DNA of 64,000 bases from a virus. Its lineage: Duplodnaviria > Caudoviricetes. The notes below the pieces were generated by a model, which did not search any database, was not told the DNA's origin, and saw only the letters and a list, made by a program, of their open reading frames with translations. The DNA lies in the IMG/VR virus record IMGVR_UViG_3300027747_002427; one strand, given 5' to 3'. A program made the translations under genes and the position numbers. Shown here piece after piece: positions 22,178 through 49,658 of the stretch (the stretch's first letter is position 1; each line of letters opens with the position of its first letter).

Positions 22178-22179
22178 AA

Positions 22180-23430: not shown

Positions 23431-23444
23431 TTATAATTAAATAT

Positions 23445-28296: not shown

Positions 28297-29142
28297 TTAC
28301 TTTAAATCCCTACCTGCGTGAGTAACTGAGACTGCAATTGAAGAGTGAATAGACTCAAGGTGATTAACGATTACAAGGTAATCCTTAATACGACCATCTA
28401 AGTCCTTATCCAACTCAACTGCAACCTTACGAACCATATCTTCAACGAAGACTGGATTCTCATACATAAGCTCTGTCTGATAAGCCTCATCGACTCTCTT
28501 GAGAGCATTAACAATAGGTGCTGAACAGCTACGCTCAACTGCTGCTACAAGCTCTTCAAACCAATAAACGTCTTTACCTTCTGTACCAGTATGACTAAGC
28601 TCAACTGTTACATCTGCATAAGACTGCTGGTTATGAGCTCCATAATCACTGATCTCCTTAGAGCAAGGGCAGAGAGAAGCGTAAAGAACATTGGCATGAA
28701 GATAAAACTTCTTCTCACCATTGATAAGACGACCCTCAAAAGAACCCTGATAGTCCATGTGAGACTTGACCTTAGAGACTGGAGCCTCCTTCATCATGAA
28801 GTAATCAAACTTGATCTTGATGTAAGCGTTCTGTGATTTCAGACGATTCTTACACTCATCAAGAAGGATATCCATAACCTCATCAATACGATGAGTCTTA
28901 TTAGCGAGAACCTCCTCAACTAAGATACGATAGCGACTCATATTTGTACCCTTAACCTCTGGAGTGAGATCTGTGTACATACTAATGATTGCCTTAGTAG
29001 GGTTAATGGTTCCGTCTTGTCTAATGATCTCCATTGGAACTACAATATTCCTAGAACCAACTTTAGGAATATACTTCTTAGGGAAACCATCCAGAGTATT
29101 TTGAATATCTGGAATGTCGTCGTTTGTCTTTATTCTTGGCAT
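28297..29142 (-). CDS. folE2: GTP cyclohydrolase IB (FolE2)
   Basis: PDIQ, KVG, KGTNMSR, APVS, LCPCSKEISDYGAHNQ, KRVDE, NPVFVED.VR, ESIH; likely start MPRIK at 29142. Confidence 0.93.
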   Translation of the reverse strand: MPRIKTNDDIPDIQNTLDGFPKKYIPKVGSRNIVVPMEIIRQDGTINPTKAIISMYTDLTPEVKGTNMSRYRILVEEVLANKTHRIDEVMDILLDECKNRLKSQNAYIKIKFDYFMMKEAPVSKVKSHMDYQGSFEGRLINGEKKFYLHANVLYASLCPCSKEISDYGAHNQQSYADVTVELSHTGTEGKDVYWFEELVAAVERSCSAPIVNALKRVDEAYQTELMYENPVFVEDMVRKVAVELDKDLDGRIKDYLVIVNHLESIHSSIAVSVTHAGRDLK

Positions 29143-29170
29143 AATTTTATTTGTTTGTTGTTTAATTGAA

Positions 29171-30034
29171 TTACAGATCTTTGAGAATATCTTGGATACG
29201 ATCATTTTGATCTGATAGGACTTCGTTATTATCCTCTACAACCGAAGAAGATGCAACTGACTTTGTTGTCGTAGGAACAACATAACTCTCTTCTTCTTCA
29301 ACTGTGTTGGAAACTGGTGATACAATCTCTTCCTCACCAAGGAAGTGAGTCTTGAGGAGCTTGTTGATATCTTCAACACTCTTATGCTCCATGATGGAAT
29401 CAAGAGGTTTGAAAGACTTATAAATCTCTTCGATGTCTGAAGCACCCTCTAAAGGAGCTGGAGATGTAAACTTAGAACTTACATAGGTAGGATAACCACC
29501 TTCATTCTGCTCAACCTTAATACGAAGATTGCATCCCTTCTCTGAAAGATCAAAGATTCTTGATCCGAGATCCTCTGCATCATCACCACTGATAGCATCT
29601 GTGATGATCTTAGCAAGCTGCTTGCCATAACGGAGAATCTTAACTTGACCCTGATTCTCTGGATTAGTTGGATCTTTAATAACGTAAACATTGGCGAGCC
29701 AATTCTCATTACGCTTGATTGGAGCAATGCGCTTGATCTCAGCTTCATTGTTGGTGCGATAGATCTTAGAGCGATACTCATCGATTGGGCAACGCTCTCC
29801 GTATGTCGTAGGACAAAGAGTTGAGACGAGTTGGTTAGTAACCACACTCTTCCAGAGATGATGGTAGTAGTGATAAAGCGTACGCTCTGGTGCTTCGATG
29901 TTAGGAATAAGGCGAACCAAATAGGTATTGCCAATTTCCAATTTCATAAAGTCTCTGAAACCACTTTCTGCGGTTGAAGACTTCTTGTTAAGAGCCTCTT
30001 TGATAGACTCGAATAGGTTTGTGTTGTATTTCAT
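29171..30034 (-). CDS. gp32: Single-stranded DNA-binding protein (gp32-like)
   Basis: LVRLIP, YHH, CPTTYGERCPI, WLANVYVIKDP.NPENQGQV.ILRYGK, FDL..GCN, YVSSKF; acidic tail ending IQDILKDL. Confidence 0.93.
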   Translation of the reverse strand: MKYNTNLFESIKEALNKKSSTAESGFRDFMKLEIGNTYLVRLIPNIEAPERTLYHYYHHLWKSVVTNQLVSTLCPTTYGERCPIDEYRSKIYRTNNEAEIKRIAPIKRNENWLANVYVIKDPTNPENQGQVKILRYGKQLAKIITDAISGDDAEDLGSRIFDLSEKGCNLRIKVEQNEGGYPTYVSSKFTSPAPLEGASDIEEIYKSFKPLDSIMEHKSVEDINKLLKTHFLGEEEIVSPVSNTVEEEESYVVPTTTKSVASSSVVEDNNEVLSDQNDRIQDILKDL

Positions 30035-30070
30035 ATGTTTGTTTGTTTAGTTTGTATTTGTTTGTTTAAT
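30035..30070 (-). promoter_or_regulatory. G-free AAAC-repeat 5' leader of gp32 (candidate autogenous operator)
   Basis: Minus strand ATTAAACAAACAAATACAAACTAAACAAACAAACAT directly before ATG; upstream TTGAAA-N15-TATAAT (30097-30071). Confidence 0.55.
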
Positions 30071-30733
30071 ATTATATTGAGTCGAATGATTTTTCAACTC
30101 TTCTATAATAAAATTTTTGATTTTTTTTGTAGCTTCTTTTACAAAGCTTTTAGTTTTAGGAGAATTATGATATCTGGTTCTTATAGCATTTAAATTATTA
30201 AAAATGTTAGGCGCCCAAATAGCTTGTTCATCCTCGCTCATATTAGAAAGAGAAGATGTATTTCCTAGTTCCATTATACTATAAGGATTAATATTATGCT
30301 CCCTATAATGTTGTGTCCAGGCTGGCATTCTTCCAATTTTATATGTCAAGTATTGATCCAAGTTGATATTATTTGCAAGGCAGAATACAGCAATAAATCG
30401 AAGACTTTCTTTAATTTTATCAAATTGTTTTTCTGGTGACTGATCTTCTAATTGTTGATGATAGAGGCTATAAGCTCTAATAGCAGCTCTTGTTGTAAAG
30501 AATTTAAGAGGAGGACATTTCTCTTCTGGGTGTAATCCGCGAGGTGCACCAAAGAATTCATCCCATTTAATATGAGGAAATTTAGAGAAGAAGTTATACA
30601 TTCTTCTTAATAAGACAATATTTTCAGAAGTTATATCTGAAAAGTCTTTTCTCGGTTGATACGGCAAACCATTACGAAAATGTTTAAGAAAACAATTGTA
30701 AATGTCTTGCTCTACTTTATTCAGTTGGTTCAA
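30047..30733 (-). CDS. Hypothetical protein
   Basis: 228 aa between the helicase block and gp32; position compatible with a gp59-like loader, but no motif confirmed. Confidence 0.55.
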   Translation of the reverse strand: MNQLNKVEQDIYNCFLKHFRNGLPYQPRKDFSDITSENIVLLRRMYNFFSKFPHIKWDEFFGAPRGLHPEEKCPPLKFFTTRAAIRAYSLYHQQLEDQSPEKQFDKIKESLRFIAVFCLANNINLDQYLTYKIGRMPAWTQHYREHNINPYSIMELGNTSSLSNMSEDEQAIWAPNIFNNLNAIRTRYHNSPKTKSFVKEATKKIKNFIIEELKNHSTQYNIKQTNTN

Positions 30734-31034
30734 TGTCTTTCTTTTTTTTGTTGAGTTTGGATCGGAAAATCTTTTTATAGATATTAGGCGTACTTCCTAA
30801 ATAGGCACGCATAATATTTTGGAGACTATAATCACCTAATATTGCGAAGTATAATTTTTGTGTCTTTTTATCTTCTATTAAGAATTTAAGGAAATTCAAG
30901 TAATTAAATTTCTTGCCCCTAGCTATACAAACGAAAGAAGCAAATTTCATAGTAATATCTTCAAATTCAGAAAGGTCAAACACATCCGAAGGATTGCTTG
31001 TTTCTTCAATTTGTTGTGAAGAGGTTATAATCAT
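30717..31034 (-). CDS. Hypothetical protein
   Basis: 105 aa, overlaps both neighbours. Confidence 0.55.
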   Translation of the reverse strand: MIITSSQQIEETSNPSDVFDLSEFEDITMKFASFVCIARGKKFNYLNFLKFLIEDKKTQKLYFAILGDYSLQNIMRAYLGSTPNIYKKIFRSKLNKKKKDIEPTE

Positions 31035-31927
31035 AATGGTTTTAAATTTTTAGTAACTTCCATAAAGAGGGGAGTTATTTTACCACCAGCAGCATATTCA
31101 TGCCCTCCACCTTCACAAATTTTCTCAGCGAAAGCTCCTACATCAATAGGATCTTCTTTAGAACATTGTCTTATAGAAACTTTTTCAGTTTTAGTATTTA
31201 CAAAGAAAAATATATCTGGGGCATATTTTTGAATAAGAAGATCCATAACTTGTGGAACTATTCTTTCAACTAAACCGGCACATACTTTCTTTTTCTTATT
31301 ACCTATATTTATATCTCCCATGAAAATAGGAACCTTGTCTGCTTCTTGAGAAGCTTCTCTCTTTATAAAATCTACAGCTCTTTTTTGATCTAGAGTAATT
31401 TTTTTAAATCCATTACTATAATCTTTAATAAATTCAGAAAATTTATTGCGATATTGAGACCAGAAAAGAATATTTAAATCATAAGAATCTGGTATTTGAA
31501 GCTTATAAGAATCAAAATCATCTGCTAATGCTATAAGCATCTTTTGATCTTGAGTTAATTCTGGAGAAGATTCCATGAATAATTTTCTCATTAATAAAGC
31601 ATTAGACGAATATTCTTTATATAATACTTTAGCTTTTTTAAATTTGTTTACAAATCTTTCTGAAGACTTATGGTGATCTATAAAAGTAACATTTTCTTTA
31701 TCTAAAAAAGGTAAAAATTCATCTCTTAAAGCTAAATCTAAAACAAAAGTAGTAGGGTTATTGTGAGTATTAGCAAAATGTTCTTTAATTTTAGTTTCTA
31801 TTTCTAAGTTATTTAAAGGAAAATAATGAAATGTGGCATCTGGTCTAGCCCACATTAATGTTAGAAGACTTACAGCGCCGTCTAAATCATTGTGTGTAAA
31901 CACATGGTAACATTTTGACATATTCAT
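31031..31927 (-). CDS. DHH/DHHA1 family phosphoesterase
   Basis: HNDLDGA, VLD, IDHH, and C-terminal SIR...GGGHEYAAG. Confidence 0.9.
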   Translation of the reverse strand: MNMSKCYHVFTHNDLDGAVSLLTLMWARPDATFHYFPLNNLEIETKIKEHFANTHNNPTTFVLDLALRDEFLPFLDKENVTFIDHHKSSERFVNKFKKAKVLYKEYSSNALLMRKLFMESSPELTQDQKMLIALADDFDSYKLQIPDSYDLNILFWSQYRNKFSEFIKDYSNGFKKITLDQKRAVDFIKREASQEADKVPIFMGDINIGNKKKKVCAGLVERIVPQVMDLLIQKYAPDIFFFVNTKTEKVSIRQCSKEDPIDVGAFAEKICEGGGHEYAAGGKITPLFMEVTKNLKPL

Positions 31928-31951
31928 TATTTAATACCATGTTACTAACTA

Positions 31952-33340
31952 TCACCCCTCATCATCTAAATTCTCTATAAGATTGAGCGTATCAGCTATA
32001 CTTTGAATGCCAGTACTAATGGATCCAGGTATGGTTCTTCTTTGAGAATTAAAAGACTGAGCTACACTATCCGGATCTCTAAGCGTAAGAGTAGGATAAT
32101 CAATTTCTAATACTGTATGACATTCTCTCGGGCCAAAACGATTTTTTGTAATACCTAAATGAATAATACCTAATTCAAAATCTTCTTCTTCTGTCCAAAT
32201 AGAAAATTGAGCGTCTGCCGTATGAGCAAGTCCCATAGACTCTGATACGGTTTCTAATCCTGGATTATTCTGATCATAAGCTGATCTATTAGCCTGAGTA
32301 GCAGAAATTACTGGACATGAAAAGTGATAAGACAACGCTCTAATTAATTCTGTTATCTGTTTAATAGCTTCGTATGAATTGGTTCCTCTCTCTGGAGGGG
32401 CTACAAGATTAAGATAATCTAATACAATAGCATCTGGTTTCACGCCTTTCTTTACTAATCTATCCAAGTAAGCTTTAATCTGAATGGGTGTAACGGATTT
32501 AGGAGGAAACTCTTTAATAATAAGTTTCGCATCTTGATGTCTTAATTTATATGCATTGAGAGAATCTTTAAGAGGGTCTATCTGCATAGGTAAATCGTTC
32601 ATAGCTATGCGAGACAATGAAGAGCTAATACGTTTTGCATAAACTTGCTCTGCCATTTCCAAAGTGATTAGGACAACGGTTTTATTCTGACTAAGAATAT
32701 TTGTAGCTATGTTTCCTAAGAAGATAGATTTACCAACATTAGTAACACCATAAAATACATATAGTGCTCTACCTTCTGCCATAAAACCACCGCCAATCTT
32801 ATCATCCAACCATTTCCATCCTGATGGAATAGTTTTGAAAACCTTTTGAAGATCTTCACAATGCGCATCAACGGACTCTAGATAATCTAATCCGTAATTT
32901 TCTACTAAAGAAATACTACAAGCCTTTTCAAAGTCTTCTAGAATTTGAGAAGAATTAATTTGACCCGACTGAACATCAATAGATGTTTTAAGAACTGTAT
33001 TATATACAGCTTTCTCTTTAAGAAATCTTTCTGTATTCTTTAATAAGACTTCTTTATCGTAATTTTTATCAATATCACTGAAGCTTAAAGCTACATTTCT
33101 AAGAGCATCTCGTTTTTCCTGTTCTACAAGATGAACTTTAAGCTCTGTAATATTAGGAACTTTATTATAAGCTGTATAATAGGTTCCTAAAGCTTCAAAT
33201 ACTGTTCTAATATTTTTGTTTTCAAAATAAGAAGGCTTTGCATGTTCTATGATACTTTCCAAATAAATTGGATCCATCAAAGAATTGTAAATTACAATCT
33301 TTTCAAAAAGACTAGAATCAATAGGTAAAGCTTTAATCAC
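31952..33340 (-). CDS. gp41: Replicative DNA helicase (gp41/DnaB-like)
   Basis: GVTNVGKS Walker A, ITLEMAE, IIKEFPP, VLDYLNL, SATQANR, SESMG, KNRFG. Confidence 0.95.
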   Translation of the reverse strand: MIKALPIDSSLFEKIVIYNSLMDPIYLESIIEHAKPSYFENKNIRTVFEALGTYYTAYNKVPNITELKVHLVEQEKRDALRNVALSFSDIDKNYDKEVLLKNTERFLKEKAVYNTVLKTSIDVQSGQINSSQILEDFEKACSISLVENYGLDYLESVDAHCEDLQKVFKTIPSGWKWLDDKIGGGFMAEGRALYVFYGVTNVGKSIFLGNIATNILSQNKTVVLITLEMAEQVYAKRISSSLSRIAMNDLPMQIDPLKDSLNAYKLRHQDAKLIIKEFPPKSVTPIQIKAYLDRLVKKGVKPDAIVLDYLNLVAPPERGTNSYEAIKQITELIRALSYHFSCPVISATQANRSAYDQNNPGLETVSESMGLAHTADAQFSIWTEEEDFELGIIHLGITKNRFGPRECHTVLEIDYPTLTLRDPDSVAQSFNSQRRTIPGSISTGIQSIADTLNLIENLDDEG

Positions 33341-33346
33341 TCAAAT

Positions 33347-33374
33347 ATAATAGTTAAAAAAGAAAATAAAGCAA
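33347..33374 (-). promoter_or_regulatory. Sigma70-like promoter TTGCTT-N16-TATTAT
   Basis: -10 box ends 6 nt before the GTG start of the helicase. Confidence 0.6.
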
Positions 33375-33376
33375 TC

Positions 33377-33562
33377 TTATTTGCGACCCCAACTCGTATT
33401 ATCAAATAAACCTGAAAATCCGTTAGTAGGTTGATTACCTACTTGAGCGGGTCTCGGTACTGGAGGATTAATAATTTTTGCAATTTCTTGTATTTCTACA
33501 TCGTCTTGTAATCTGTGTGGAGGCAGATTGTTTAATATATCTTTTAGTTGTTGATATGTCAT
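33377..33562 (-). CDS. Small hypothetical protein
   Basis: 61 aa filling the gap between queD and the helicase promoter. Confidence 0.5.
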   Translation of the reverse strand: MTYQQLKDILNNLPPHRLQDDVEIQEIAKIINPPVPRPAQVGNQPTNGFSGLFDNTSWGRK

Positions 33563-33565
33563 AAA

Positions 33566-34081
33566 TTATACTCCCGGTCTTTTAGAAATAAGATTAGGAT
33601 TTCCTAATCCATTATAGGTAACAGATTGTACGGTTACTGGTTTTGGTTTTTCATAAAGAGCTGAATTATTTTCATGCTCAAATACTTCAACCTTTTCTAC
33701 CCAGCAACGATCACCATATACTGAATTAATATATTCTTGGGTTGTATTAAAACACCATTCTGCTGTTCTTTCAATACCAACACCCTTAGGCATGATACGA
33801 AGAACACAAGCACCTAATTGATCAAGTTCTTTAAACTTTTCCAAATGAGGATCATCTGCTGCAATACAAAGAGTATGATCAAATTGATCATTAAGAATTT
33901 TCTTAAGATCTTTAAGACCTCCAAAATCTACAACCCAATTCTTTTCATCTAATTCTTTACAACCAAACCAGAATTTAGCTTTGAGTTGATACCCGTGAAG
34001 ATATTGACAATGACTATGCTTTGCACCATATTGACGAAAAGCACAAGAACCTAATTCAATTATCTTTGTTGATGTATACAT
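33566..34081 (-). CDS. queD: 6-carboxy-5,6,7,8-tetrahydropterin synthase (QueD/PTPS)
   Basis: CAFRQ...SHCQYLHGY, WVVDFGGLK, FDH, E..AEW, FEHENNSA; start MYTSTK at 34081. Confidence 0.88.
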   Translation of the reverse strand: MYTSTKIIELGSCAFRQYGAKHSHCQYLHGYQLKAKFWFGCKELDEKNWVVDFGGLKDLKKILNDQFDHTLCIAADDPHLEKFKELDQLGACVLRIMPKGVGIERTAEWCFNTTQEYINSVYGDRCWVEKVEVFEHENNSALYEKPKPVTVQSVTYNGLGNPNLISKRPGV

Positions 34082-34082
34082 A

Positions 34083-35258
34083 TTAATTTTCTTCCTCTTC
34101 TGATTCAATTGAAGTATAAACTAATTCTGGCTTCTCTACAACAACTTCTTCTTCAATTAAAGAGTCATTATTGAAACAAAGTTTGGTCTTCAATTTCTCT
34201 TCTAATGCTGGAAGAATCTTGTTCCATACATTGATGTCTGTTTTCCAATCCTTAAAGAATCCTAAGACCTCACCATTAAAAGTATGACGATGTCCGGCTT
34301 TTTCAAGAACCTCATAACCTTCACACATCTCAAGTAATCCAGAATACTTGTTAAGACCAGTGCGGAAATTAAGATACATTTCTGTCTCAAGATAAGGAGG
34401 TACAAAACGATTCTTTGTAGTAAGGGCTCGAAGTGTTAAACCATTGATATCTTTTGATAAAGGTGTAACATCGGTGTTAGAATCCTTATTCTTACTATCA
34501 CTTGATCTCTCTGCTTTCTTAGCCATCTGAACGATAACCGAAGCCATATAAAGAGGGCCTGAACCACCAGCCTGCTTCTTAATAGCTGAAGGATGAAGCT
34601 GGGATGGATCTTCGTAAATATGATTAGTAAAGATAACTGGACAATTAGCTTTTGCAGCTGAATGGGTAATAGCTCTCATCATACTCTTCAAAGCCTTTGC
34701 TCTATTTCCCATGTCTGGTGTATCACTACCTTCATCGATCTTTTTCTTTTCTTGAGTAGTAATAAGATTACCTAGAGAGTCAATAACAATTAAAACCTTG
34801 CCGTGCAATTTATTTGCTATAACTGTATCAAGAAATTTAACAATTTGATTGCGACAAGACTCTGTAATCTCTGTAGGTATATGCTTAATCTTAGAAGGAT
34901 CACAACCAAGTCTAGCTGCTGTAGCTTCATCTAATGCTCCTTCTGTGTCGAAATATGCAATATGCATACCCTTCTTTTGAGCATTAGCCATAACCTTATT
35001 ACACATTAATGTCTTACCACAAGATTCTGGTCCAATAAATCCTGTAAGTCTTCCCATAGGGACACCACCATAGATAGAACCGGATATAATAGCATTTAAT
35101 GCCATTGATCCTGTATCGATCCAATCCTTAACCGTAGATAAACTATTTTCATCTAGATAAGCTGCTTCTGGATTTAAATCTTCTAAAATCTTAAAAGCGT
35201 CTTGAATAGATCCACTTGTTTCTTCTACTTCTTCTGTATTTTTCTTTTTGTATGCCAT
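34083..35258 (-). CDS. uvsX: RecA-like recombinase UvsX
   Basis: IDTGSMALN, GPESCGKT, YFDTEGA, IVIDSLG, NHIY, GGSG, KNRF; start MAYKK at 35258. Confidence 0.94.
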   Translation of the reverse strand: MAYKKKNTEEVEETSGSIQDAFKILEDLNPEAAYLDENSLSTVKDWIDTGSMALNAIISGSIYGGVPMGRLTGFIGPESCGKTLMCNKVMANAQKKGMHIAYFDTEGALDEATAARLGCDPSKIKHIPTEITESCRNQIVKFLDTVIANKLHGKVLIVIDSLGNLITTQEKKKIDEGSDTPDMGNRAKALKSMMRAITHSAAKANCPVIFTNHIYEDPSQLHPSAIKKQAGGSGPLYMASVIVQMAKKAERSSDSKNKDSNTDVTPLSKDINGLTLRALTTKNRFVPPYLETEMYLNFRTGLNKYSGLLEMCEGYEVLEKAGHRHTFNGEVLGFFKDWKTDINVWNKILPALEEKLKTKLCFNNDSLIEEEVVVEKPELVYTSIESEEEEN

Positions 35259-35265
35259 ATAAAAT

Positions 35266-35311
35266 ATTATAACAAAAAACCTCAGAAAGTCAATTGACAA
35301 TCTGAGGTTTT
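35266..35311 (-). promoter_or_regulatory. Overlapping terminator-like inverted repeat and uvsX promoter
   Basis: AAAACCTCAGA-N14-TCTGAGGTTTT followed by a T-tract on the minus strand; contains TTGACT-N16-TATAAT with extended TG, 7 nt before ATG. Confidence 0.7.
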
Positions 35312-35338
35312 CCTGGTTTCTTTTGATCAGATTACGAT

Positions 35339-35725
35339 TTACTCATCAAAAAGATTAATTACACTACTGTTAGTACCACCTGATGCTGGAGCGGATGGCG
35401 GGACAAAAACATTGCTCTTGTTGAACATCTGGCTATACTGAGCACTCAAGCGAAAATCAATAGCTTCAATGTCAGTTTCTGTGATACTATCCTTCTTATA
35501 AGAAAAGATAACGTCGCCAGTCTTGTCGGGCAAAAATTCTCTAAAAAAGATTGGAAGTAATTGAACTGACATTCTTCCGTTCTGATCTTGAGGAACTACG
35601 TTAAGAACAACTGGGTTCTTAAGTGCCAAGATTGTGTCGTTTGTCTTGTCTGCTACGACTTCACCTAAAATGGTGCGGCCTACAGTATCAAGGATGGTTG
35701 TTAGGGTTGTTGTTGTTTCGCTCAT
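35339..35725 (-). CDS. Hypothetical protein
   Basis: 128 aa; own TTGCCT-N16-TATAAT promoter (35761-35734), 8 nt before ATG. Confidence 0.65.
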   Translation of the reverse strand: MSETTTTLTTILDTVGRTILGEVVADKTNDTILALKNPVVLNVVPQDQNGRMSVQLLPIFFREFLPDKTGDVIFSYKKDSITETDIEAIDFRLSAQYSQMFNKSNVFVPPSAPASGGTNSSVINLFDE

Positions 35726-35734
35726 AAAAATATA

Positions 35735-36406
35735 TTATATCGAATCTTGCTCATTAGGCAACTCCGATTTCCAATTTAATGCTTCTGAAATATTAGGAAA
35801 TATTTCAACAAAAGTATCTTTAATAGCTAGAGCTATTTCTCGATGTTCCTTTTGTGTATCTTCTTTTGTTCTTAAATCAATATAATGTACCCAGCTTCTT
35901 ACATTACCACTCATATACATTGTAGTCTGAGTGCATTGAGGTAAAACCATTCTAGCACATTCCTTTGCTGCTCCCTTTTCTAAAAGATTTTCATAAAGAG
36001 TGGCTCCAGCTACAAGATATTGCTTTATAGCTTCTGTGCTTTCTTCATTTAAATCTAGAAGATCTGTACTTGATTGCCTATTCTTTTCGGCTTGTTTTCT
36101 GATTTCAAAAGATTCAAAGTCTGTAATATTGCTATATCTTTGACTAAACTCTTGGAAAGAAAAACTACGGTGCCTTAAAATTTGTGCTGCAATAGCTCTT
36201 GAAGTCTTAATTTCAAAAGTCATACTAACCATTTCAAAGGGACTCCAGTGTTTATGGTCTATTAAATATTTTAATAATTTAGGAGCTGTTTGTGTATTAG
36301 CTTGATTAGACGGATTAGACACCCGTGCACAATAACTAATAAAATCTTCTGGGGATAATATCCCCTCAATTACTGGTTCTGTGATGCTTACTATTTTTAC
36401 TTGCAT
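35735..36406 (-). CDS. thyX: Flavin-dependent thymidylate synthase
   Basis: ARVS, HWSPFE, RHRSFSFQEFSQRY (ThyX motif), ARMVLP, R...TQKEH. Confidence 0.96.
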   Translation of the reverse strand: MQVKIVSITEPVIEGILSPEDFISYCARVSNPSNQANTQTAPKLLKYLIDHKHWSPFEMVSMTFEIKTSRAIAAQILRHRSFSFQEFSQRYSNITDFESFEIRKQAEKNRQSSTDLLDLNEESTEAIKQYLVAGATLYENLLEKGAAKECARMVLPQCTQTTMYMSGNVRSWVHYIDLRTKEDTQKEHREIALAIKDTFVEIFPNISEALNWKSELPNEQDSI

Positions 36407-37266
36407 AAAATATTCTCCTTAAAGAAATTAATATTCTCTTCTACACATTCTAATTGCATATCTGATACTTTTTTGTCAAAAATATCTACCATTTTTTCTA
36501 CAATTTTATGTTCTAAATTAACTGCATATTCATAACTCTTAAGATTATAACCCATTAATACTGGATGAGATGTATCTATAGTCTCAATAAAAGAATAAAG
36601 ATCTCCTGTATAATTTATAAATTCTGTAGGTAATCCACAACCTAATAAATGATGGGATTTTGTATAATCTATAACCCCATCATCAATTAATTGTTTCAAT
36701 AGCTTGGGTCTAAATGTAGCAAATGCTGTTGGTTTCCATACTTCTTTAATTCTTTTTTCATTGTTTTTGGAATTATAAAGCAATGCTAAATCAAAATCAT
36801 TCTTTGCATTTTCTAAAGCTTGCTGCCAATAATAGTCATATCCAAAGCTAATTGCTATCTTATCTGCATGTTGTGACATGAATAAATAGGAATCTTTTAA
36901 TTCCTGGTAATTTTTTCCCTGGACAACTCCTATGCGTTTGCCTCTTGCAGAATGTGTATCAAATTTACCTAGGAACTCTTCAAAACTTTTAATATTGGCT
37001 TCATAATCTTGAAATACATCAGGAATTATATACTCATCTGGCTCTAATTGCAGAACCCAATTAAAAAATAACTCATGATTATAAGCTTCACCAAGCTCAT
37101 AAAGACTATTATCTAAAATAATTTTGCGTCCCATTTCTTTAGATTCAAAGAAAAAGTCTCTATATTCTTCACTTTCCTCTAGAAGATGAACTAAAGCATA
37201 GTCATAATCCGTTAAAGAACGGACTTCTTTCATTATTTGTAATGGTGCTTCGTGTGCTACTAACAT
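36397..37266 (-). CDS. TGT-fold (DpdA-like) guanine transglycosylase
   Basis: ILDNSLYE, IIPDV, IGVVQG, HHLLGCG, IDTSHP correspond in order to TGT/DpdA barrel motifs; folE2/queD/queE in the same arm. Confidence 0.7.
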   Translation of the reverse strand: MLVAHEAPLQIMKEVRSLTDYDYALVHLLEESEEYRDFFFESKEMGRKIILDNSLYELGEAYNHELFFNWVLQLEPDEYIIPDVFQDYEANIKSFEEFLGKFDTHSARGKRIGVVQGKNYQELKDSYLFMSQHADKIAISFGYDYYWQQALENAKNDFDLALLYNSKNNEKRIKEVWKPTAFATFRPKLLKQLIDDGVIDYTKSHHLLGCGLPTEFINYTGDLYSFIETIDTSHPVLMGYNLKSYEYAVNLEHKIVEKMVDIFDKKVSDMQLECVEENINFFKENILCK

Positions 37267-37276
37267 AATTTTGTAA

Positions 37277-37304
37277 ATTATATACTATAAACCTAACAAA
37301 TCAA
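37277..37304 (-). promoter_or_regulatory. Sigma70-like promoter TTGATT-N16-TATAAT
   Basis: 10 nt before the ATG of the TGT-fold gene. Confidence 0.55.
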
Positions 37305-39861
37305 ATAGATCTGTCTGTGTTTCTGCTCCCATTGTAGGTAAATCCCATCCAATACAGTCATAAACTCTCTGAATTGGTGGAGATACTATCTTGTCAAACA
37401 TGACTTGGTGGTTAATTTTAATATGCTCATTGAGTTCTACAGGATAGTGATCCATAAATGCCATGACCTTATAGTTAAAAGGGTTTTTAGCCGCATAGAA
37501 ATATTTCATCTTCATACCACTTGGAATAGATTCGTACAAATGATCTATTCCATAATGTTTTAATAGATTGTTATAATGTATTGCTGCCTTAGCATGAATA
37601 GGTGTACCCTTACCAATCTTACCATCCTTATCTATTTTAGCTTCTTGTTTTTCTATATCTGAAATTTTACTTCTGATAGCAAGTTCTTCTGCTTTCATTT
37701 CTTTGAAACTTTCATAAGCCTCTCTAAAGATTTCATTAGACTTCTTTTTATCTTCTGAAAGCATTGCAAGTTCAATTACATTTTTAATTAAACCTTTAAC
37801 TTCATTAGAAATAGATGAGCGTGCTACTTCTACACCGACATATTTAAATGGATCTTTTGGAGTATAACCTTCTTTATCTAGAATATGAAGAATATATCTT
37901 TTCTTTTCCATGAACAATCCTACATCACAAATAGTCTCTTGCTTGAAAACAAATCGTGGATCTGATGATTTTAATTGTTCTCTAGCCCAAACAAGAATTT
38001 CTGTATTAAGATAATTGTCAATTTCTTTGGTTACATTTCTTGCTTCTTCTGTTAGTTTACCATCTTTAACCAAATCAATACCTAAATGAGTAAGAACTGG
38101 TTGAATAGAAAAATATGCTGAGTCTGTATCACCATAAAGATATATCTTTTCCTTTTCTACTTTACATCCTTTCTTAATTGCATAATCATAAACAATCTCT
38201 GCTGCTTGTTTAACTACAGACTGACCGGTCAATGTAATACTAGCGGAGTGGTCTATGTCAAAAAGAGGGGAATACTTTTGTGCAAATACTCCATAGATAG
38301 AATTCAATACAAGCTTATAAACATTCTGTTGAGTATCTAAATTAAGAATCTCTTGTTCTATCTTATCCTTTTCTTTCTTATCTTTAATGGATGGTAAAGA
38401 TTTCTCTCTTTTAATCATTTCATTCTTTGCATCAACACGCTCTTTATACAAGCGATCAATGAGGTTAGGAATGACTCCTTTAAACTTTTGTGTATACAAT
38501 ACGTTATATTTGGATATTGAAAGATTTTCTTTTTGGACAAGCTTATTAAACTTCTCTTCTGAAAGAGTTACAGTCTTCTCATTAGCCAATTTTATAGTGT
38601 ATTGCTTGTCTTCAATAGTAGATATTTTACCTATTTTTGTCTCAGGAGATATATTAAGAGTAATAATAGTATTAGGATATAGACTGTTTGCATCATAACT
38701 AACAACAGACTTACTTAACCCTCTCTCTGGCTCGTGGACGTAACCTCCTACATATTCATCTCTTACGCCATCGTTCTTAAATGTAGGAATAACATAACCT
38801 TGAATAGCTGCTTGATGTGCTACAGCTCCGGTAATCATAGATACCTTACCCATAGCTTGTTCAAAAGGAATGAATCCTTTGTAAGAAAGTGTTCTTACAA
38901 GCTTTATAAATTTGAGCTTCTCATCCAACTTAACAAGAATTCTTACGTCTTGTATATTATAGTCTACAAATTTACTCCAATCTTCTACAGATAATTGAGC
39001 CAGGTTGGATACCCCGGTGTCAATCTTTCCTTCTTTTAATTCATATTCTCCTACATAATTCAAAGAATAAGATTCACGTTCTCCTCTTGAAAAGGTTTTA
39101 TAAACCTCCATATAATCAATGTTACTAACACCTCGGATATACCAACGATTGATCATCTTGCCGAATTTATTCATGGCTACATTCTCTCTATAATAAAGAG
39201 AATTAACTGGTGAAAGCCTCGCAGCATCTTCTTCACCAAAAAGATTATGAAGACGATTCATAATATAAGGAATATCAAATCCTTCACCATTCCAAGTACT
39301 AAGAATATCTGGAGGATCCTTCTCCCAGAATTCTATAAATCCTTTAAGCATTGCTGTCTCTGTAGGATAATAAAAATAAGTTACATCTTTATCCGTAGGA
39401 GTATAAGGCTTGATACCAAAAGAATAATATTTTTGCTTTATACTATCATAAAGAGTAATAAGATTAATAGGATCTTTAGCTAATTCTGGAACTGGAAACT
39501 CATTTGGTGAATAGGTTTCAATATCCAAAAAGTAAACCTTAAGTGGATTTAAACCAAAGTCTATCTTATTGACATCATCTTTATATGTAGACAATAAGAA
39601 ATCTTGTTCGCAACTAAGATTATGAAATAATCTTTTTATAGGAGTCTCATTAACAAATTTACTTCTATCAAACTGATTTTTAAATTTAACCTTCTTTAAT
39701 GGTGTGTTAAAGATCGAAGTAGCATCATGAGCTGAAGAAGACTCAATATACAAATGAGGCTCATAATCAGCCACAAGCTTAATCCTATTACCATTCTCAT
39801 CCCACGTCCAGAGATGAATGACTCCTTGTCTTCCATCATAGAAAATATTTCTCCACGCCAT
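37285..39861 (-). CDS. gp43: Family B DNA polymerase (gp43-like)
   Basis: Exonuclease LDIET, WNGEGFD, YNIQD; polymerase SYDANSLYP, KLVLNSIYG, YGDTDS. Confidence 0.97.
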   Translation of the reverse strand: MAWRNIFYDGRQGVIHLWTWDENGNRIKLVADYEPHLYIESSSAHDATSIFNTPLKKVKFKNQFDRSKFVNETPIKRLFHNLSCEQDFLLSTYKDDVNKIDFGLNPLKVYFLDIETYSPNEFPVPELAKDPINLITLYDSIKQKYYSFGIKPYTPTDKDVTYFYYPTETAMLKGFIEFWEKDPPDILSTWNGEGFDIPYIMNRLHNLFGEEDAARLSPVNSLYYRENVAMNKFGKMINRWYIRGVSNIDYMEVYKTFSRGERESYSLNYVGEYELKEGKIDTGVSNLAQLSVEDWSKFVDYNIQDVRILVKLDEKLKFIKLVRTLSYKGFIPFEQAMGKVSMITGAVAHQAAIQGYVIPTFKNDGVRDEYVGGYVHEPERGLSKSVVSYDANSLYPNTIITLNISPETKIGKISTIEDKQYTIKLANEKTVTLSEEKFNKLVQKENLSISKYNVLYTQKFKGVIPNLIDRLYKERVDAKNEMIKREKSLPSIKDKKEKDKIEQEILNLDTQQNVYKLVLNSIYGVFAQKYSPLFDIDHSASITLTGQSVVKQAAEIVYDYAIKKGCKVEKEKIYLYGDTDSAYFSIQPVLTHLGIDLVKDGKLTEEARNVTKEIDNYLNTEILVWAREQLKSSDPRFVFKQETICDVGLFMEKKRYILHILDKEGYTPKDPFKYVGVEVARSSISNEVKGLIKNVIELAMLSEDKKKSNEIFREAYESFKEMKAEELAIRSKISDIEKQEAKIDKDGKIGKGTPIHAKAAIHYNNLLKHYGIDHLYESIPSGMKMKYFYAAKNPFNYKVMAFMDHYPVELNEHIKINHQVMFDKIVSPPIQRVYDCIGWDLPTMGAETQTDLFDLLGL

Positions 39862-39870
39862 ATTAAGATA

Positions 39871-40407
39871 TTATACTACCTTAATACCATTTTCAATAAA
39901 TTCTTTTACTTCTTCATCTATAATAGGATTACCTTCATGGAGAATATCTGAAACGGTTTTATACAAATCAAAAGCTTTACGCTCAAAGAAATTTGTAGCT
40001 TTCTCAAATCCTAATGTATCAATCCAACAATTCATTTGAGGATATTGAGGAGCAGCATGAAAGATACACCCATTATGAAAATTACCAATCCAACAAAGAA
40101 GAAAGATAGCTCCCTTAAGCTCTTTATCTTTAACCATATATTCAAAGAAAACTGCTCTTTCTTCTGGAGCCTTGCCTACATAACGATTTAATTTAGTAAT
40201 GTATTCTCCATCTAAAAAGATAATAGAACGACCTTTGGATGTTGTATGATCCTTTAATGCTTTGACATTATTATCATTCATATAGACCTTACGCAAGGTA
40301 GGCCATTTTACATTTACACCCCTCGTAGAAAAGAATGGCGACTCCTGTAAAGGCTGTCGATTCATTGATACTTTTTTATTTTGACGAAGGTCTAATGTAT
40401 TACTCAT
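39871..40407 (-). CDS. Hypothetical protein
   Basis: 178 aa; TTGGTT-N17-TACTAT 6 nt upstream of ATG. Confidence 0.6.
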   Translation of the reverse strand: MSNTLDLRQNKKVSMNRQPLQESPFFSTRGVNVKWPTLRKVYMNDNNVKALKDHTTSKGRSIIFLDGEYITKLNRYVGKAPEERAVFFEYMVKDKELKGAIFLLCWIGNFHNGCIFHAAPQYPQMNCWIDTLGFEKATNFFERKAFDLYKTVSDILHEGNPIIDEEVKEFIENGIKVV

Positions 40408-40450
40408 ACATTAATAGTATGATATAATAAGAGGAAAACCAAGAAAAATC

Positions 40451-41767
40451 TTACACCTTTTGATCCAAATTATTAGCAATCAATATAGGACTCTTTTTAT
40501 TTCTCTCTTCTGAACCCCATTCTGTAAAGTATAAAGCCTCATATTCATCTAAGTGATCTTCTAACCAAAGACCCTCAGCAAATTTACGACCCTTATCTGA
40601 AAGGTTCATATAACGATCAAAATCTGAAGTAATGTATTCTAATTGTTGAATAAGATCTGATCCATTTTTAAAGCTAATATCTGCACCTTCATAAGTGCAA
40701 ATATCTTGGAAAACTCCTGGCATACCAAATGCTCCTGCTTCAATCATCTTAATATTACTCTTAGACTTATTAAATACATTATCTTGTAAAGCTGCAAATG
40801 ATACATTGCACTTAGCATCATAGATACCTTGTGGATAATCTGGAAGAGCTGACCAATCAATGTATTCCATTTCTCCATTATCAATATATGGCTTCAAAGC
40901 TAATGGATAACATCCTTTCCAAACAAATTTAAATTTCTTACGAGCCTTGATGATTTCCTGTACTACATGAGCAAAATCATCATTCATTCCTGTTCTATTG
41001 ATTACATCAATGTGAGTGCCAGACCCAGCATAAAGAACTCTAGGACGCTTTTTGTTCTTTTCGTAAAGATCAATAACGTGTTGTTTATTATAAAATCTAT
41101 CAAGCCAAGACTTAGGAGCATAATTTGGAATAACTGTAATCTTTTTATTACCTGTCTTATTGATGTAATAATCTTTCATGTATTGGCATGTGACGGTTAT
41201 TTCATCCATCATTTCCATAATACCCAATATACTCTTAACAATACTTTCATCTACAAATGCATCTTTGCATCTATTATAATCTGGGATATCATCTTTAAAA
41301 ACAATATCATCCACTTCATAAAGCAAACGGAATCCCATTTCTTTACTAGCCTTTTTAAGTTCTGTAATAAACTGCTTCTGCATTGGCGTAGCCTGTCTTT
41401 GCATTCTAATAGCTTTAATGCCTTGATAAAAACGAATATCCATTACCATGCATGTCAAACCGGAAATACAAGCTTTTTGATATTGATTCAAAGCAAATTC
41501 TGGCCAAATCATTCTCCAGAAACCACAACCACCGTAATCTGCATAGTAGTTTAAAGCTCTTGGTAAACTGGTTTCTGGCATCTCTAATGGTGGTGGTCCA
41601 GGAACCTGTACTGGATTAATAGCTACATAAGAGTATGAAGGCATTCCAGGAGGAAGAGCTGGTGGATTGTGAGGGAAGCCACCATTAATAGCTTTATATT
41701 CAAACACAATTTTATTTTTAGTGTCTATAGGTTGAGAGATCTCTGGAGTCTTTATTTTTAAAGCCAT
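40451..41767 (-). CDS. GT-B fold glycosyltransferase
   Basis: YADYGGCGFWRM, YEVDD, ITVTCQYM, VIPNY, YAGSGTH, FNKSKSNIKMIEAG. Confidence 0.75.
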   Translation of the reverse strand: MALKIKTPEISQPIDTKNKIVFEYKAINGGFPHNPPALPPGMPSYSYVAINPVQVPGPPPLEMPETSLPRALNYYADYGGCGFWRMIWPEFALNQYQKACISGLTCMVMDIRFYQGIKAIRMQRQATPMQKQFITELKKASKEMGFRLLYEVDDIVFKDDIPDYNRCKDAFVDESIVKSILGIMEMMDEITVTCQYMKDYYINKTGNKKITVIPNYAPKSWLDRFYNKQHVIDLYEKNKKRPRVLYAGSGTHIDVINRTGMNDDFAHVVQEIIKARKKFKFVWKGCYPLALKPYIDNGEMEYIDWSALPDYPQGIYDAKCNVSFAALQDNVFNKSKSNIKMIEAGAFGMPGVFQDICTYEGADISFKNGSDLIQQLEYITSDFDRYMNLSDKGRKFAEGLWLEDHLDEYEALYFTEWGSEERNKKSPILIANNLDQKV

Positions 41768-41800
41768 ATATTAAATTTATAAACTATTGTTAAAAGGCAA

Positions 41801-42571
41801 TTAAACTTTAAGAGCTTTGTTCCAAATTAACAATTGTAATCTTGGGCTAAAATTAACATGCATTGCCTTAGCATACTCTGCTACTGCTGGTGCTCTTTCT
41901 ACGTGCTCTTCTCTAGAACCACAGCAAGGCATAAACCAAATGCGATTAAGTGGTATATTAATACCATTGTTATCTTTAACATATTTCTCCCAAATCTCTT
42001 CAATGTCTTCTGCAACATTAATAACAAACTTAAATCCTGATCCATTGCTTACATGCCATTTAAGAACTTCTGGCTTGTAAGTCTTATCTTCAGGATCACC
42101 ATTTGAACGAAGCTTGGGAGATGTAGTAAATGTAGCCCCAAAAGCTTTCCACTCTGGAGCTGGTGTTAGTGTAGCATTAGTTTCAAAATCTATGCGAGGC
42201 ACAATTTCATATCTCGCTATAAAGGATCTAATAAATTTGATTAATTGATTTTGCTGAATAAGAGGTTCTCCTCCTGTAAGCTTTAGAATTGCTCCATTAC
42301 GAAGATGTTCTATATAGTTATTATCTTCCATAAGTTGGAAGATTTCTGCAAATGTCATCTTATTCTTTACAGACCAAGAAATAAATGAATCACATCCGTT
42401 AGGTGAATCTTCAGAAGCAAAACCAATGCATGTAAGATTACACATAGACATACGCATAAAGACCGAAGGTACGCCTACATATTCTCCTTCTCCTTCTATG
42501 GTATAAAATACTTTATCATCTGATAGGAATAAGGTTTCTTGGTTAATGTCAATTAAAGAATTCATTGTCAT
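41801..42571 (-). CDS. queE: 7-carboxy-7-deazaguanine synthase (radical SAM QueE)
   Basis: FYTIEGEG..VG.PSVFMR, C.L.C...C (with insertion), TGGEP, ETN, SPKL, KFVI, SPRLQ; start may be Met3 at 42565. Confidence 0.88.
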   Translation of the reverse strand: MTMNSLIDINQETLFLSDDKVFYTIEGEGEYVGVPSVFMRMSMCNLTCIGFASEDSPNGCDSFISWSVKNKMTFAEIFQLMEDNNYIEHLRNGAILKLTGGEPLIQQNQLIKFIRSFIARYEIVPRIDFETNATLTPAPEWKAFGATFTTSPKLRSNGDPEDKTYKPEVLKWHVSNGSGFKFVINVAEDIEEIWEKYVKDNNGINIPLNRIWFMPCCGSREEHVERAPAVAEYAKAMHVNFSPRLQLLIWNKALKV

Positions 42572-42584
42572 ATTTTAGTATATT

Positions 42585-44396
42585 TTAAACTAACATCAAC
42601 CTTGTTTTACCATTTATCTTTTCTAATTGAATGATGTTATCTAACCCGTTCTTGATAACGGATTTGTTGTGAGAGACTATATAAACACTTTCGTCATAGT
42701 CTTCAACTCTTGTTTTTAAAATTTCCAATATCTTTTCTGCTCCCTTCTCATCTACTGCAGAATCTAATAATTCATCATACATACTAAGAGAAAAGGATGT
42801 CCCGGTTTGTGTTCTTAATACATCTTGAAACATAAAGAGAATAGCTAAATCAATTCTTTTACGCTCTCCTCCACTAAAATTAAAATATGAACATTCTTTG
42901 CCTTGATCATTGTATATGGATTCTTCAAATATCTCATTAAATTCACACTTACAAGGAGCTTCTAGAATTTGTAAATAATGATTAAGTCTAGAATTTAAAA
43001 GATTTAACATCTTTTTAATAATGTATGTCTTTACACCTTCTTCCGAAACAACATATTTGGCTGTATCTAAAATGGTTAATTTCTTTTGTATTACTTGTAT
43101 TTGTTTTTCAGATTCTAAAATTTCAGTTTCTACATTATCTATAAGCTCCAATACACCATCTTTTTCATTTCTTAGAGTGGAGATTTCTTCAAGAATTTCT
43201 ACATTTCTTTTTTCTAATTGGCTCAATTCTTGTATAGCAAGAGCTAAATCACCCTTATCTTTATTGAGAGCCTTTATTTTTTGTTTAGTAGATGTAATAG
43301 CTGATTCTACTTTGGTTTCTTTTTTATTTAAATCTTCTAGAATCTTTCTCAAAGGTTCTTTTTTATCTTGAAGGGGTATTAATTTATCTTCTATTTCTTT
43401 TAAACAATCTTCTAAATTAGCATTTTCATCATACTTTCTTTTACAAGTAGGACAAGATGAATCTGTTTTTAATTTTTCTTTTTGCTTTTCTAAAGTTTTA
43501 GATTCATAATTAATTTGTAAAAGTTCTGTATTAGTATCAGAAGCAGACTTTTTAACCTTCTTTAAGCCCTCTTCAAGAGCTTCGAGATCAGATTCTTTGC
43601 TCTGTATCTCTTTGTCCAAATCATTAATTCTTCCATTCACTGAATCTTGATTCGATACATTTTTAATCTTTTGGTTATTAGCTTCTATTTTATCTTTTAA
43701 AGCTAATATTTTATTATTTTTAACTTCTTCATTTTTATCTGCTTGGCTCTTATATAGTTTTAAATTTCTTTGTTGATCTATAAATTTAGATCCAATTATA
43801 TCATTTTCTTTTTTAATATCATTATAATCTGATCTTGCCTGTAAAAGCATTTGACCAAAAATACCTAAATTTAAAATACCTTCTACAAATTTTCTTTTGT
43901 CTACCTTCTTTTGTGCCATGAAAGGTAAGGTATTATTAGCTGTCATAATGACCGCATTTTGAAATACCTCTTCATTAGCTCCTATTAATTCTTTGATATA
44001 TTCATTGGTCTCAGGCATTGTTGAGTGCGTCATGTCTACATCTTTTTGATCAACATGAGAAAATACACTCACTTTACTTGGTTCTAATGATCTCTTAATA
44101 GTATAAGGAATAGTTTGACTGCCATTAAAAATATTAAAACTTAAAATCACTTCACAACCTTTTTTAGTTTGATGGTGTATAATTTTATCTTTTTTAATAT
44201 CTCTCATGGTGACTCCAAATAAACACCAATATAAAGATTCAATCACAGTGCTTTTACCTACACCATTACGACCTCCCTTATCACGATTTTCTCCAGTAAT
44301 AAGGTTAACACCTTTTTGAAAAGATATCTCTAGAGGATCTTCTCCTACGGAAAGAAAATTTTGTATTTTGACACTATTAAAAATAACGCTTCTCAT
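42585..44396 (-). CDS. gp46: Recombination endonuclease ATPase subunit (gp46/Rad50-like)
   Basis: NFLS, NGVGKS Walker A, coiled coil with CPTC hook, FSGGE signature, YDELLDSAVD, VSH. Confidence 0.95.
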   Translation of the reverse strand: MRSVIFNSVKIQNFLSVGEDPLEISFQKGVNLITGENRDKGGRNGVGKSTVIESLYWCLFGVTMRDIKKDKIIHHQTKKGCEVILSFNIFNGSQTIPYTIKRSLEPSKVSVFSHVDQKDVDMTHSTMPETNEYIKELIGANEEVFQNAVIMTANNTLPFMAQKKVDKRKFVEGILNLGIFGQMLLQARSDYNDIKKENDIIGSKFIDQQRNLKLYKSQADKNEEVKNNKILALKDKIEANNQKIKNVSNQDSVNGRINDLDKEIQSKESDLEALEEGLKKVKKSASDTNTELLQINYESKTLEKQKEKLKTDSSCPTCKRKYDENANLEDCLKEIEDKLIPLQDKKEPLRKILEDLNKKETKVESAITSTKQKIKALNKDKGDLALAIQELSQLEKRNVEILEEISTLRNEKDGVLELIDNVETEILESEKQIQVIQKKLTILDTAKYVVSEEGVKTYIIKKMLNLLNSRLNHYLQILEAPCKCEFNEIFEESIYNDQGKECSYFNFSGGERKRIDLAILFMFQDVLRTQTGTSFSLSMYDELLDSAVDEKGAEKILEILKTRVEDYDESVYIVSHNKSVIKNGLDNIIQLEKINGKTRLMLV

Positions 44397-45304
44397 TTAT
44401 TTTCTAAAATCCAATTTTTAACATCTATGGTAGGTTTGTAATTTAAATATTTTTGAGCTTCTGTTATATCAGCTAATGTATGTTCTGCTTCACCAGCTCT
44501 TGCTGGAATATATTCAATATTATTATCGATAAGTCTAGCTATATCTTTTATTGATATATTTTGACCGGTTCCTATATTGTAAAGATTTCTACCTTCATGG
44601 GTTTCTGTCTCTGCTGCTAATATATTAACGTTTGCTATATCATATACATGAACAAAATCTCTACATTGTTCTCCATTTCCTACTATTGTTAAAGGTTCTT
44701 TATTAGCTTTCTGACGTAAAAATATTCCTATAACCGGAGCATAAGGACCTGTTCGAGGACTTCTTTCACCGAAAACATTAAAGTAACGAAATACAATTGT
44801 TTTCAATCCAAACATTTTTGTATACATTTCTACCATTTGTTCTCCGGAATATTTTGTAGCAGAATAAGGATTTAAACAATCTATTGGTTCGTTTTCATCT
44901 GTAGGTAATTTACATAAATTACCATAAACTGAGGATGTAGATGAATATATAAACTTCTCTATATTGTATAATCTACTATATTGAAGCATCTTAGTAGTGC
45001 CAACAGCATTTATTTCTACAGCTCTTATTGGATTAAGAATAGCTGGTCCTATTCTAGACTCAGCTGCAAGATGAAAAACATATTTTACATTTTCAAAAAT
45101 CTCTTTATGAGGCAAAGAATCATCATTGATATCAAATTTGTAATATGTTGCTAAATTATTAAAGTAAAATTTTTCATTAGACTCTGCTGAAAGATTGTCT
45201 ATAACAAGAACTTCATAACCCTTTTCCAGGAGTTTATCTACTAAATGACTTCCTATAAAGCCGCATCCTCCGGTTACTACTACTTTATTTTTTAAATTGC
45301 TCAT
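44393..45304 (-). CDS. NAD-dependent nucleotide-sugar epimerase/dehydratase (extended SDR)
   Basis: TGGCGFIGSH, HLAA, SSTSSVYG, YSATK, RYFNVFG, RDFVHV. Confidence 0.92.
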   Translation of the reverse strand: MSNLKNKVVVTGGCGFIGSHLVDKLLEKGYEVLVIDNLSAESNEKFYFNNLATYYKFDINDDSLPHKEIFENVKYVFHLAAESRIGPAILNPIRAVEINAVGTTKMLQYSRLYNIEKFIYSSTSSVYGNLCKLPTDENEPIDCLNPYSATKYSGEQMVEMYTKMFGLKTIVFRYFNVFGERSPRTGPYAPVIGIFLRQKANKEPLTIVGNGEQCRDFVHVYDIANVNILAAETETHEGRNLYNIGTGQNISIKDIARLIDNNIEYIPARAGEAEHTLADITEAQKYLNYKPTIDVKNWILENK

Positions 45305-46016: not shown

Positions 46017-46017
46017 A

Positions 46018-49651: not shown

Positions 49652-49658
49652 ATTATAT

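Follow-up and report, generated by a model that had tools for sequence, protein, structure and literature searches.

A probable DpdA3-type 7-deazaguanine DNA modification system with a FolE2 entry enzyme in the replisome operon of an uncultured freshwater T4-like phage

Introduction

Does an uncultured freshwater phage replace the guanine of its DNA with a 7-deazaguanine? The question is raised by four genes in the IMG/VR virus record IMGVR_UViG_3300027747_002427, from which a stretch of 64,000 nt (hereafter the window, meaning this whole stretch) was analyzed by comparisons of open reading frames (ORFs), profiles, tblastn matches and structural models. The window belongs to the genome of a T4-like myophage with a G+C content of ~31%. 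The initial annotation had recognized a FolE2, a QueD, a protein with the fold of tRNA-guanine transglycosylase (TGT) or DpdA, and a QueE, and had proposed that the genome is deazaguanine-modified. All four genes were confirmed on the minus strand by profile, tblastn and fold evidence, as follows.

28297-29205, minus strand: FolE2 (GTP cyclohydrolase IB; PF02649, 220 bits; NF010200, 209 bits)
33566-34108, minus strand: phage-type QueD (6-carboxytetrahydropterin synthase; PF01242, E 4.9e-17; PHROG 2389, E 1.6e-35)
36397-37266, minus strand: DpdA3-family DNA guanine transglycosylase, a predicted 7-deazaguanine insertase of 289 aa (tblastn and AlphaFold2 fold)
41801-42571, minus strand: QueE (radical-SAM, i.e., radical S-adenosylmethionine, 7-carboxy-7-deazaguanine synthase; PHROG 2076, E 2e-39)

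All of them lie in a replication and recombination operon that occupies ~25.5-61.4 kb of the window on the minus strand. Together, they likely make up most of the core of a 7-deazaguanine DNA modification system of the DpdA3 type, four genes out of five, as a permanent part of the replisome operon. Modification of the genome by deazaguanine remains the best reading of these genes, as the DpdA3-family phages studied so far replace 100% of their G.

The predicted DpdA3 transglycosylase

The TGT-fold protein is assigned to the DpdA3 family on the basis of its sequence relatives and its predicted structure. In tblastn, it matched the annotated DNA guanine transglycosylase of the Flavobacterium phage immuto_2-6A (41% identity over 97%, E 7e-52) and the enzyme of the Campylobacter phage CP220 group (38% over 93%, E 1e-39), while the DpdA3 of the Cellulophaga phage phiST was too distant to give a tblastn match. 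The immuto_2-6A and CP220 proteins are among those for which the DpdA3 subfamily was first described, in 2023, and liquid chromatography-mass spectrometry (LC-MS) revealed that 100% of the G positions are occupied by fdPreQ1 in the DNA of immuto_2-6A and by dADG in that of CP220 (PMC10516641). Searches of Pfam and NCBIfam and a phmmer search of the PDB returned nothing that would identify the window protein from its sequence, and DUF6610 is touched by only seven of the 56 family members.

The alignment of these 56 homologues was used to build an AlphaFold2 model, which reached a mean predicted local distance difference test score (pLDDT) of 95.4. PDB matches 1-50 of the model in Foldseek are all tRNA-guanine transglycosylases (E ~4e-7). 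In VIA-align, the model was superimposed on TGT structures with a Z score of 17.1-17.4 over ~232 residues (root-mean-square deviation, rmsd, 3.1) and on the solved DNA preQ0 insertase DpdA (PDB 7ui4) with a Z score of 17.1 over 230 residues (rmsd 3.0). The TGT/DpdA fold that had been proposed from the sequence is borne out by the Foldseek matches and, over the whole protein, by the VIA-align scores.

Residues D52, D83, D231, H206, L208 and G209 are invariant in the 56 homologues, and the whole motif H206-L207-L208-G209 is invariant or nearly so. In the model, the C-terminal end of strand b3 carries D52, that of b4 D83, that of b8 D231 and that of b7 the HLLG motif. The equivalent strand ends in the DpdA of Salmonella Montevideo carry Asp95 as the general acid/base, Asp130 for base recognition, Asp256 as the nucleophile, and Leu236 (PMC10164549). 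A sub-threshold hidden Markov model (HMM) alignment places the family motif iDTSnP on the sequence SIDSTTP of DpdA and D231 on Asp256, allowing for a tag offset of ~20 residues; in the profile search of the PDB, the DpdA entry appeared only at E 1.1. With hhalign, the segment HHLLGC was aligned with RYLMGV of the E. coli Tgt (E 0.004, at a low probability).

FolE2, QueD and QueE

The first enzyme of the system is FolE2, the zinc-independent type IB GTP cyclohydrolase, whereas all described phage systems use FolE of type IA, and this is the new and unusual part of the gene set. The ORF at 28297-29205 matches the Pfam GCHY-1/FolE2 family with an E of 4.5e-65, carries the motif CPCSKE and is 96.7% identical to the FolE2 of the IMG/VR relative G004, which is described below. 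About 100 metagenomic homologues are 277-281 aa long, spanning 93% of the window ORF, and their lengths indicate that the true start is probably Met22 at position 29142. Homologues are abundant in metagenomes, with identities from 94% down to ~50%. Among 50,697 deposited phage records, FolE2 matches were obtained in only three, namely one faecal fragment and two unannotated Staphylococcus records, all of doubtful standing, and no Campylobacter phage record gave a match. The 2023 survey of phage deazaguanine systems does not mention FolE2. In the relatives of the window, neither FolE type IA (PF01227) nor any other GTP cyclohydrolase was found.

QueD bears the motif HCQYLHGY (HC-x3-HGY), which retains the catalytic Cys and the first His but has Tyr in place of the second, and so deviates from the HGH of the canonical CxxxHGH motif. 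The same pattern, FRQ...HCxxLHGY, is found in the QueD of immuto_2-6A. The protein aligns to the solved QueD 7v0f, and its probable start is Met10 at position 34081. Since it keeps the catalytic Cys and lacks the LxxxHRHxF motif, it is not the decarboxylase DpdL. Each relative has a single gene of the 6-pyruvoyltetrahydropterin synthase (PTPS) family, also known as the T-fold, and this gene carries the Cys motif.

QueE retains the cysteines of a Cx3Cx11C cluster and the TGGEP SAM motif, both conserved with immuto_2-6A and G004; TGGEP and the general spacing Cx3C-x(8-11)-C are common to the enzymes of the window and immuto_2-6A. Five QueE models of NCBIfam matched it weakly (E 1e-11 to 1e-7, with scores below the equivalog cut-offs); it also matches Fer4_12 and is 33-39% identical to the QueE proteins of phiSM and HVTV-1. 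Judged from their sequences and shared unusual motifs, both QueD and QueE are of the types used by the functional immuto_2-6A pathway.

QueC in the genomes of relatives

The fifth core gene, queC, had been reported as missing from the window, and this observation holds. Pfam scans of ~60 ORFs detected no QueC in the window. Six-frame tblastn searches of the window plus an extension of 11.6 kb that is 100% identical to it detected no QueC (three phage queries), QueF, DpdN or FolE-IA, and no amidotransferase or DUF366 protein like those of the relatives described below. A part of this extension is provided by contig L022, which is 100% identical to positions 53234-64000 and extends the window by 9.8 kb.

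The search beyond the window, which the initial annotation had recommended, led to a different picture. G004 is a genome of 176.8 kb, estimated to be 82% complete, that is colinear with the whole window (positions 1-64000 correspond to G004 29568-90326) and whose DpdA3 is 79% identical to that of the window. In G004 and in a second relative, G005, a QueC (PF06508, 199 bits) is encoded 16.3 kb past the window-equivalent end. The block runs in the order primase, an unknown ORF of ~211 aa on the minus strand, QueC, a Glyco_tranf_2_5 protein, a class-II amidotransferase and a DUF366 protein. The same block recurs in at least four further lineages, and QueC is present in every sufficiently long relative. 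The contigs bearing it come from other samples or lineages, with ~75-77% nucleotide identity to G004, and are not tied to the window genome by overlap. When the QueC DNA of two relatives was queried against a sequence index, a look-alike was returned from the genome to which the window belongs, lying 117,666 nt before the window start; on a permuted map of ~200 kb, this is the syntenic place. Syntenic QueC genes in the relatives, taken with the look-alike in the same genome, make it very likely that the genome of the window has QueC.

The QueC of this clade is divergent. Its loop reads HSG-HWDCS with a four-residue deletion, compared with FPDCR in the QueC* of CP220 and YPDCR in the QueC of immuto_2-6A. 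The genes after it are always the same: one glycosyltransferase-like, one for a free-standing class-II amidotransferase and one for the DUF366 protein (G004 L018:6633-9238; L033, L036, L038). DUF366 had one weak match among phage records, in the Microcystis phage MaAM05, and a literature search for the whole word returned no paper. The amidotransferase of the relatives has nearer kin than the Gat domain of Gat-QueC, which gives no support to the idea of a simple split of Gat-QueC that makes dG+. The search for queF, also recommended initially, gave no match above the cut-off for PF14489 in the relatives G003, G004 and G005, the best of which is only 82% complete.

A hypoxanthine-guanine phosphoribosyltransferase (HGPRTase; TIGR01203, 158 bits, above the cut-off) is encoded in G004 and G003 ~8 kb before the window-equivalent start. 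In G004, it is located at 21779-22207 (L050:1447-1977), where genes for an HNH nuclease and a dCMP-deaminase-like protein adjoin it.

Proposed pathway and alternative explanations

What follows is a prediction, from the activity of each enzyme and the choice of DNA as target to the share of G that is replaced and the nature of the final base. FolE2 would convert GTP to dihydroneopterin triphosphate (H2NTP), QueD would convert H2NTP to 6-carboxytetrahydropterin (CPH4), and QueE would convert CPH4 to 7-carboxy-7-deazaguanine (CDG). QueC, very likely encoded elsewhere in the genome and possibly acting with the amidotransferase and the DUF366 protein, would turn CDG into an amide- or nitrile-level base, 7-amido-7-deazaguanine (ADG) or preQ0, or into a derivative; derivatives of preQ1 are less likely, as no QueF was found in the relatives. 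DpdA3 would then exchange G in the phage DNA for the deazaguanine base by the double displacement of TGT enzymes, with Asp231 as the putative nucleophile and Asp52 as the putative general acid/base. By analogy with the DpdA3 phages studied, the exchange would probably take place at most or all G positions and protect the DNA from restriction. The guanine released might be recycled by HGPRTase.

Several points weigh against this interpretation. DpdA3 has no significant match to Pfam TGT, and its hhalign probability against the E. coli Tgt is only 8%. D52 and D83 were mapped by their invariance and strand position, not by residue-level superposition. The activity of a DpdA3 has never been reconstituted, and the attempts of the original authors in E. 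coli failed (PMC10516641). The public contigs of the window's own genome all break 11.6 kb past the window end, short of the predicted place of QueC. Replacement in immuto_2-6A and CP220 was measured by LC-MS, whereas for the window modification is predicted from genes and a fold model. Finally, CATG, CTAG and GTAC are mildly avoided in the DNA, a residual avoidance that would not be expected under full protection, while GATC, CCGG and GCGC are not avoided; these palindrome frequencies are uninformative as a proxy for protection.

It is conceivable, and we put it forward tentatively, that phages of this abundant clade replace all G with an undescribed 7-deazaguanine derivative, through a pathway entered by FolE2, continued by the divergent QueC with the free-standing amidotransferase and DUF366 protein, and fed again with the released guanine by an HGPRTase. 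As part of the same tentative proposal, none of the three, FolE2, the HSG-HWDCS type of QueC or the amidotransferase/DUF366 pair, would have a counterpart in any deazaguanine phage studied.

The deazaguanine may instead enter DNA through the nucleotide pool, the base being made into a nucleotide by the phage HGPRTase and kinases and built in by the family B DNA polymerase (PolB), with DpdA3 patching the DNA or acting on free substrates. Such a route would suit the location of HGPRTase next to the dCMP deaminase in G004 and G003, the phosphoribosyltransferase and NTP pyrophosphohydrolase inside the immuto_2-6A module, the ADG nucleoside seen in CP220-infected cells (PMC10516641), and the position of dpdA3 directly beside polB and thyX. 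We nevertheless consider it rather unlikely: the published view is one of post-replicative exchange, with a DpdA in every modified phage (PMC10516641), and HGPRTase, which is known from relatives and not from the window's own genome, is equally explained as salvage of released guanine to GTP. Furthermore, no dGTP-depleting enzyme was identified in the window.

Far less probable is the suggestion, made in the initial annotation on the condition that QueC is lacking genome-wide, that the modified base derives from CDG (as dCDG or dDG) or that the phage uses the QueC of its host. The window and its extension, taken by themselves, would allow it, and phages of the phiST type do stop at CDG and decarboxylate it. 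Against that condition stand the QueC found at the syntenic place beyond the window in every long relative and the look-alike indexed in the same genome. The T-fold protein, moreover, retains the catalytic Cys of QueD as opposed to DpdL, and each relative holds only one PTPS-family gene.

A role in RNA, with the genes boosting the supply of queuosine or preQ and the TGT-fold enzyme adjusting translation through the modification of tRNA, is about equally improbable. The fold matches tRNA-guanine transglycosylases as well as DpdA (Z 17.4 vs 17.1), and the fold alone cannot tell the substrate. However, the protein is a bare barrel of 289 aa that has no PUA domain, and its three cysteines do not form a CxCxxC...H cluster of the kind that binds zinc in bacterial TGT. 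It has no Pfam TGT match, and no canonical TGT, as defined by that family, was found in the relatives. Among named proteins, it is related only to the DpdA3 enzymes of phages whose DNA is fully substituted, and its gene sits in the replisome operon.

Least credible of all is a supply of pterin or folate cofactors, for example to the adjacent ThyX, by FolE2 and the PTPS-family protein in place of a deazapurine route: FolE2 is the first enzyme of folate synthesis, ThyX requires methylene-tetrahydrofolate and PTPS-family enzymes are promiscuous (COG0720), but QueE, QueC and DpdA3, which have no folate role, co-occur with FolE2 and QueD in all relatives, no FolB, FolK or FolP turned up among the scanned ORFs, and the QueD motif is common to the QueD of immuto_2-6A.

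Comparison with characterized deazaguanine systems

The system proposed for the window can be compared with four characterized deazaguanine systems. Immuto_2-6A has the closest named DpdA3, shares the QueD subtype and the QueE cysteine spacing, and also has a QueC. It differs in its FolE of type IA, in the possession of QueF and the formyltransferase DpdN, in the loose clustering of the genes over 18.5 kb, and in being a PolA phage. The system of the window, by contrast, starts with FolE2 and is combined with a T4-type replisome; QueF was not found in the relatives, and DpdN was not found in the window plus extension. The QueC of the clade belongs to another subfamily than that of immuto_2-6A, and it is accompanied by the separate amidotransferase and DUF366 protein.

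The CP220 group (Firehammervirus) consists, like the source of the window, of T4-like myoviruses with pathway genes dispersed over tens of kb; it has no QueF. In CP220, dpdA3 stands beside a gene of thymidylate metabolism, as it does beside thyX in the window. The loop of the CP220 QueC* is of the canonical type, unlike that of the clade, and the amidotransferase/DUF366 pair is not known from CP220.

In phiST, 100% of G is replaced by dDG, and the phage has DpdA3 and DpdL and no QueC (PMC10516641). With its FolE, QueD, QueE and DpdA3 and no QueC, phiST resembles the window when the window is taken alone. However, phiST has a second T-fold protein, DpdL with the LxxxHRHxF motif, and truly lacks QueC, whereas the clade has a single, Cys-bearing QueD and a QueC in the relatives. 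The window and its relatives thus do not show the features of a dDG system of the phiST type.

The bacterial DpdA/DpdB of Salmonella Montevideo, the preQ0 insertase of the Dpd restriction-modification system, shares the TIM-barrel fold of TGT with the window protein; the HLLG and ID(S/T)xxP motifs align, and the nucleophilic Asp is conserved. The bacterial DpdA has 436 aa with large insertions (Ins8), needs the ATPase DpdB and acts at specific sites that make up less than 0.1% of G (PMC10164549, PMC10516641). In contrast, the phage DpdA3 is a minimal barrel, and no DpdB homologue was noticed among the scanned ORFs.

Genomic context and other genes in the window

The plus strand of the window encodes sheath, tube, baseplate and terminase proteins. 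On the minus strand, the neighbours of the four pathway genes include the following.

29171-30034: gp32-like single-stranded DNA-binding protein gene, abutting FolE2
31952-33340: DnaB-like helicase, on one side of QueD
34083-35300: UvsX/RecA, on the other side of QueD
35735-36406, minus strand: ThyX (PF02511, E 3e-53), directly downstream of dpdA3 with a 10-nt overlap
37285-39861, minus strand: family B DNA polymerase, T4 gp43-like (PF00136 and PF03104), directly upstream of dpdA3
40451-41767, minus strand: glycosyltransferase of 438 aa, between queE and polB (PHROG 7162, E 1.3e-20)
42585-44396: SbcC-like (gp46) gene, adjoining queE

The Pfam-identified neighbours confirm that each pathway gene lies beside a replisome gene, as had been noted initially. 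PolB is 28-30% identical to the gp43 of cyanophages and pelagiphages. The dispersed layout of the pathway is real and conserved in the clade; it is not unique to it, the genes of CP220 being dispersed as well. The 438-aa glycosyltransferase was considered as a further member of the pathway, but it gave only weak matches (24-27%) to the glycosyltransferases of unrelated phages and is treated as a neighbour.

Between PolB and this glycosyltransferase, an ORF of 178 aa (39871-40407, minus strand) is 96% identical in G004 and more conserved than PolB. It has no relative among phage records, and neither this ORF nor that at 35339-35725 gave a lead in Pfam, PHROG or the Atlas. Just after uvsY, a SegE-like GIY-YIG homing endonuclease gene (61664-62098, plus strand) has a 92% identical copy at the same place in G004.

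An island of ~13.5 kb related to glycans (44393-57867, minus strand) separates the gp46-like (SbcC) gene from the gp47-like (Mre11) gene. It encodes an NAD epimerase/dehydratase, a cytidylyltransferase-like protein, a GHMP kinase, a transaldolase and a SIS isomerase, a set that looks like a nucleotide-heptose pathway. The island also encodes two methyltransferases, one of the TylF type, and six glycosyltransferases (GT1, GT25, GT10 fucosyltransferase-like, GT47 exostosin-like, Nucleotid_trans and GT2). It is only partly common to G004 and is thus a variable island.

On the plus strand at 21077-25481, two adjacent ORFs encode gp5/VgrG-like baseplate spike proteins with the Phage_base_V OB domain, one of them with a weak Tlde1 match, and are followed by an ORF of 738 aa with a weak DUF2345 match. 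A local duplication is suggested by G004, in which a single region matches both spike ORFs. In L022 (10587-20567), giant tail-fibre-like ORFs of 1183, 671 and 677 aa accompany a sulfotransferase gene (PF13469). The metagenome contigs of this phage all end at one and the same point, ~11.6 kb past the window, within tail-fibre-like genes, which suggests a hypervariable or repeated receptor-binding region.

Implications

DpdA3 is the only known transglycosylase family that has been linked to the complete replacement of a canonical base. The clade described here offers a compact and confidently modelled DpdA3 together with a full and well-conserved set of supporting genes. The FolE2-driven version of the pathway would show that it can do without the zinc-dependent FolE, which is unreported for phage DNA modification. 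The DNA of this phage is found in freshwater metagenomes of several studies, and an exhaustive HMMER search of metagenomes recovered 1,438 representative clusters of DpdA3 relatives (clustered at 50% identity), pointing to a system that is common in lake viromes. If G is indeed fully modified in these phages, work on such viromes that relies on restriction enzymes or nanopore sequencing would be affected.

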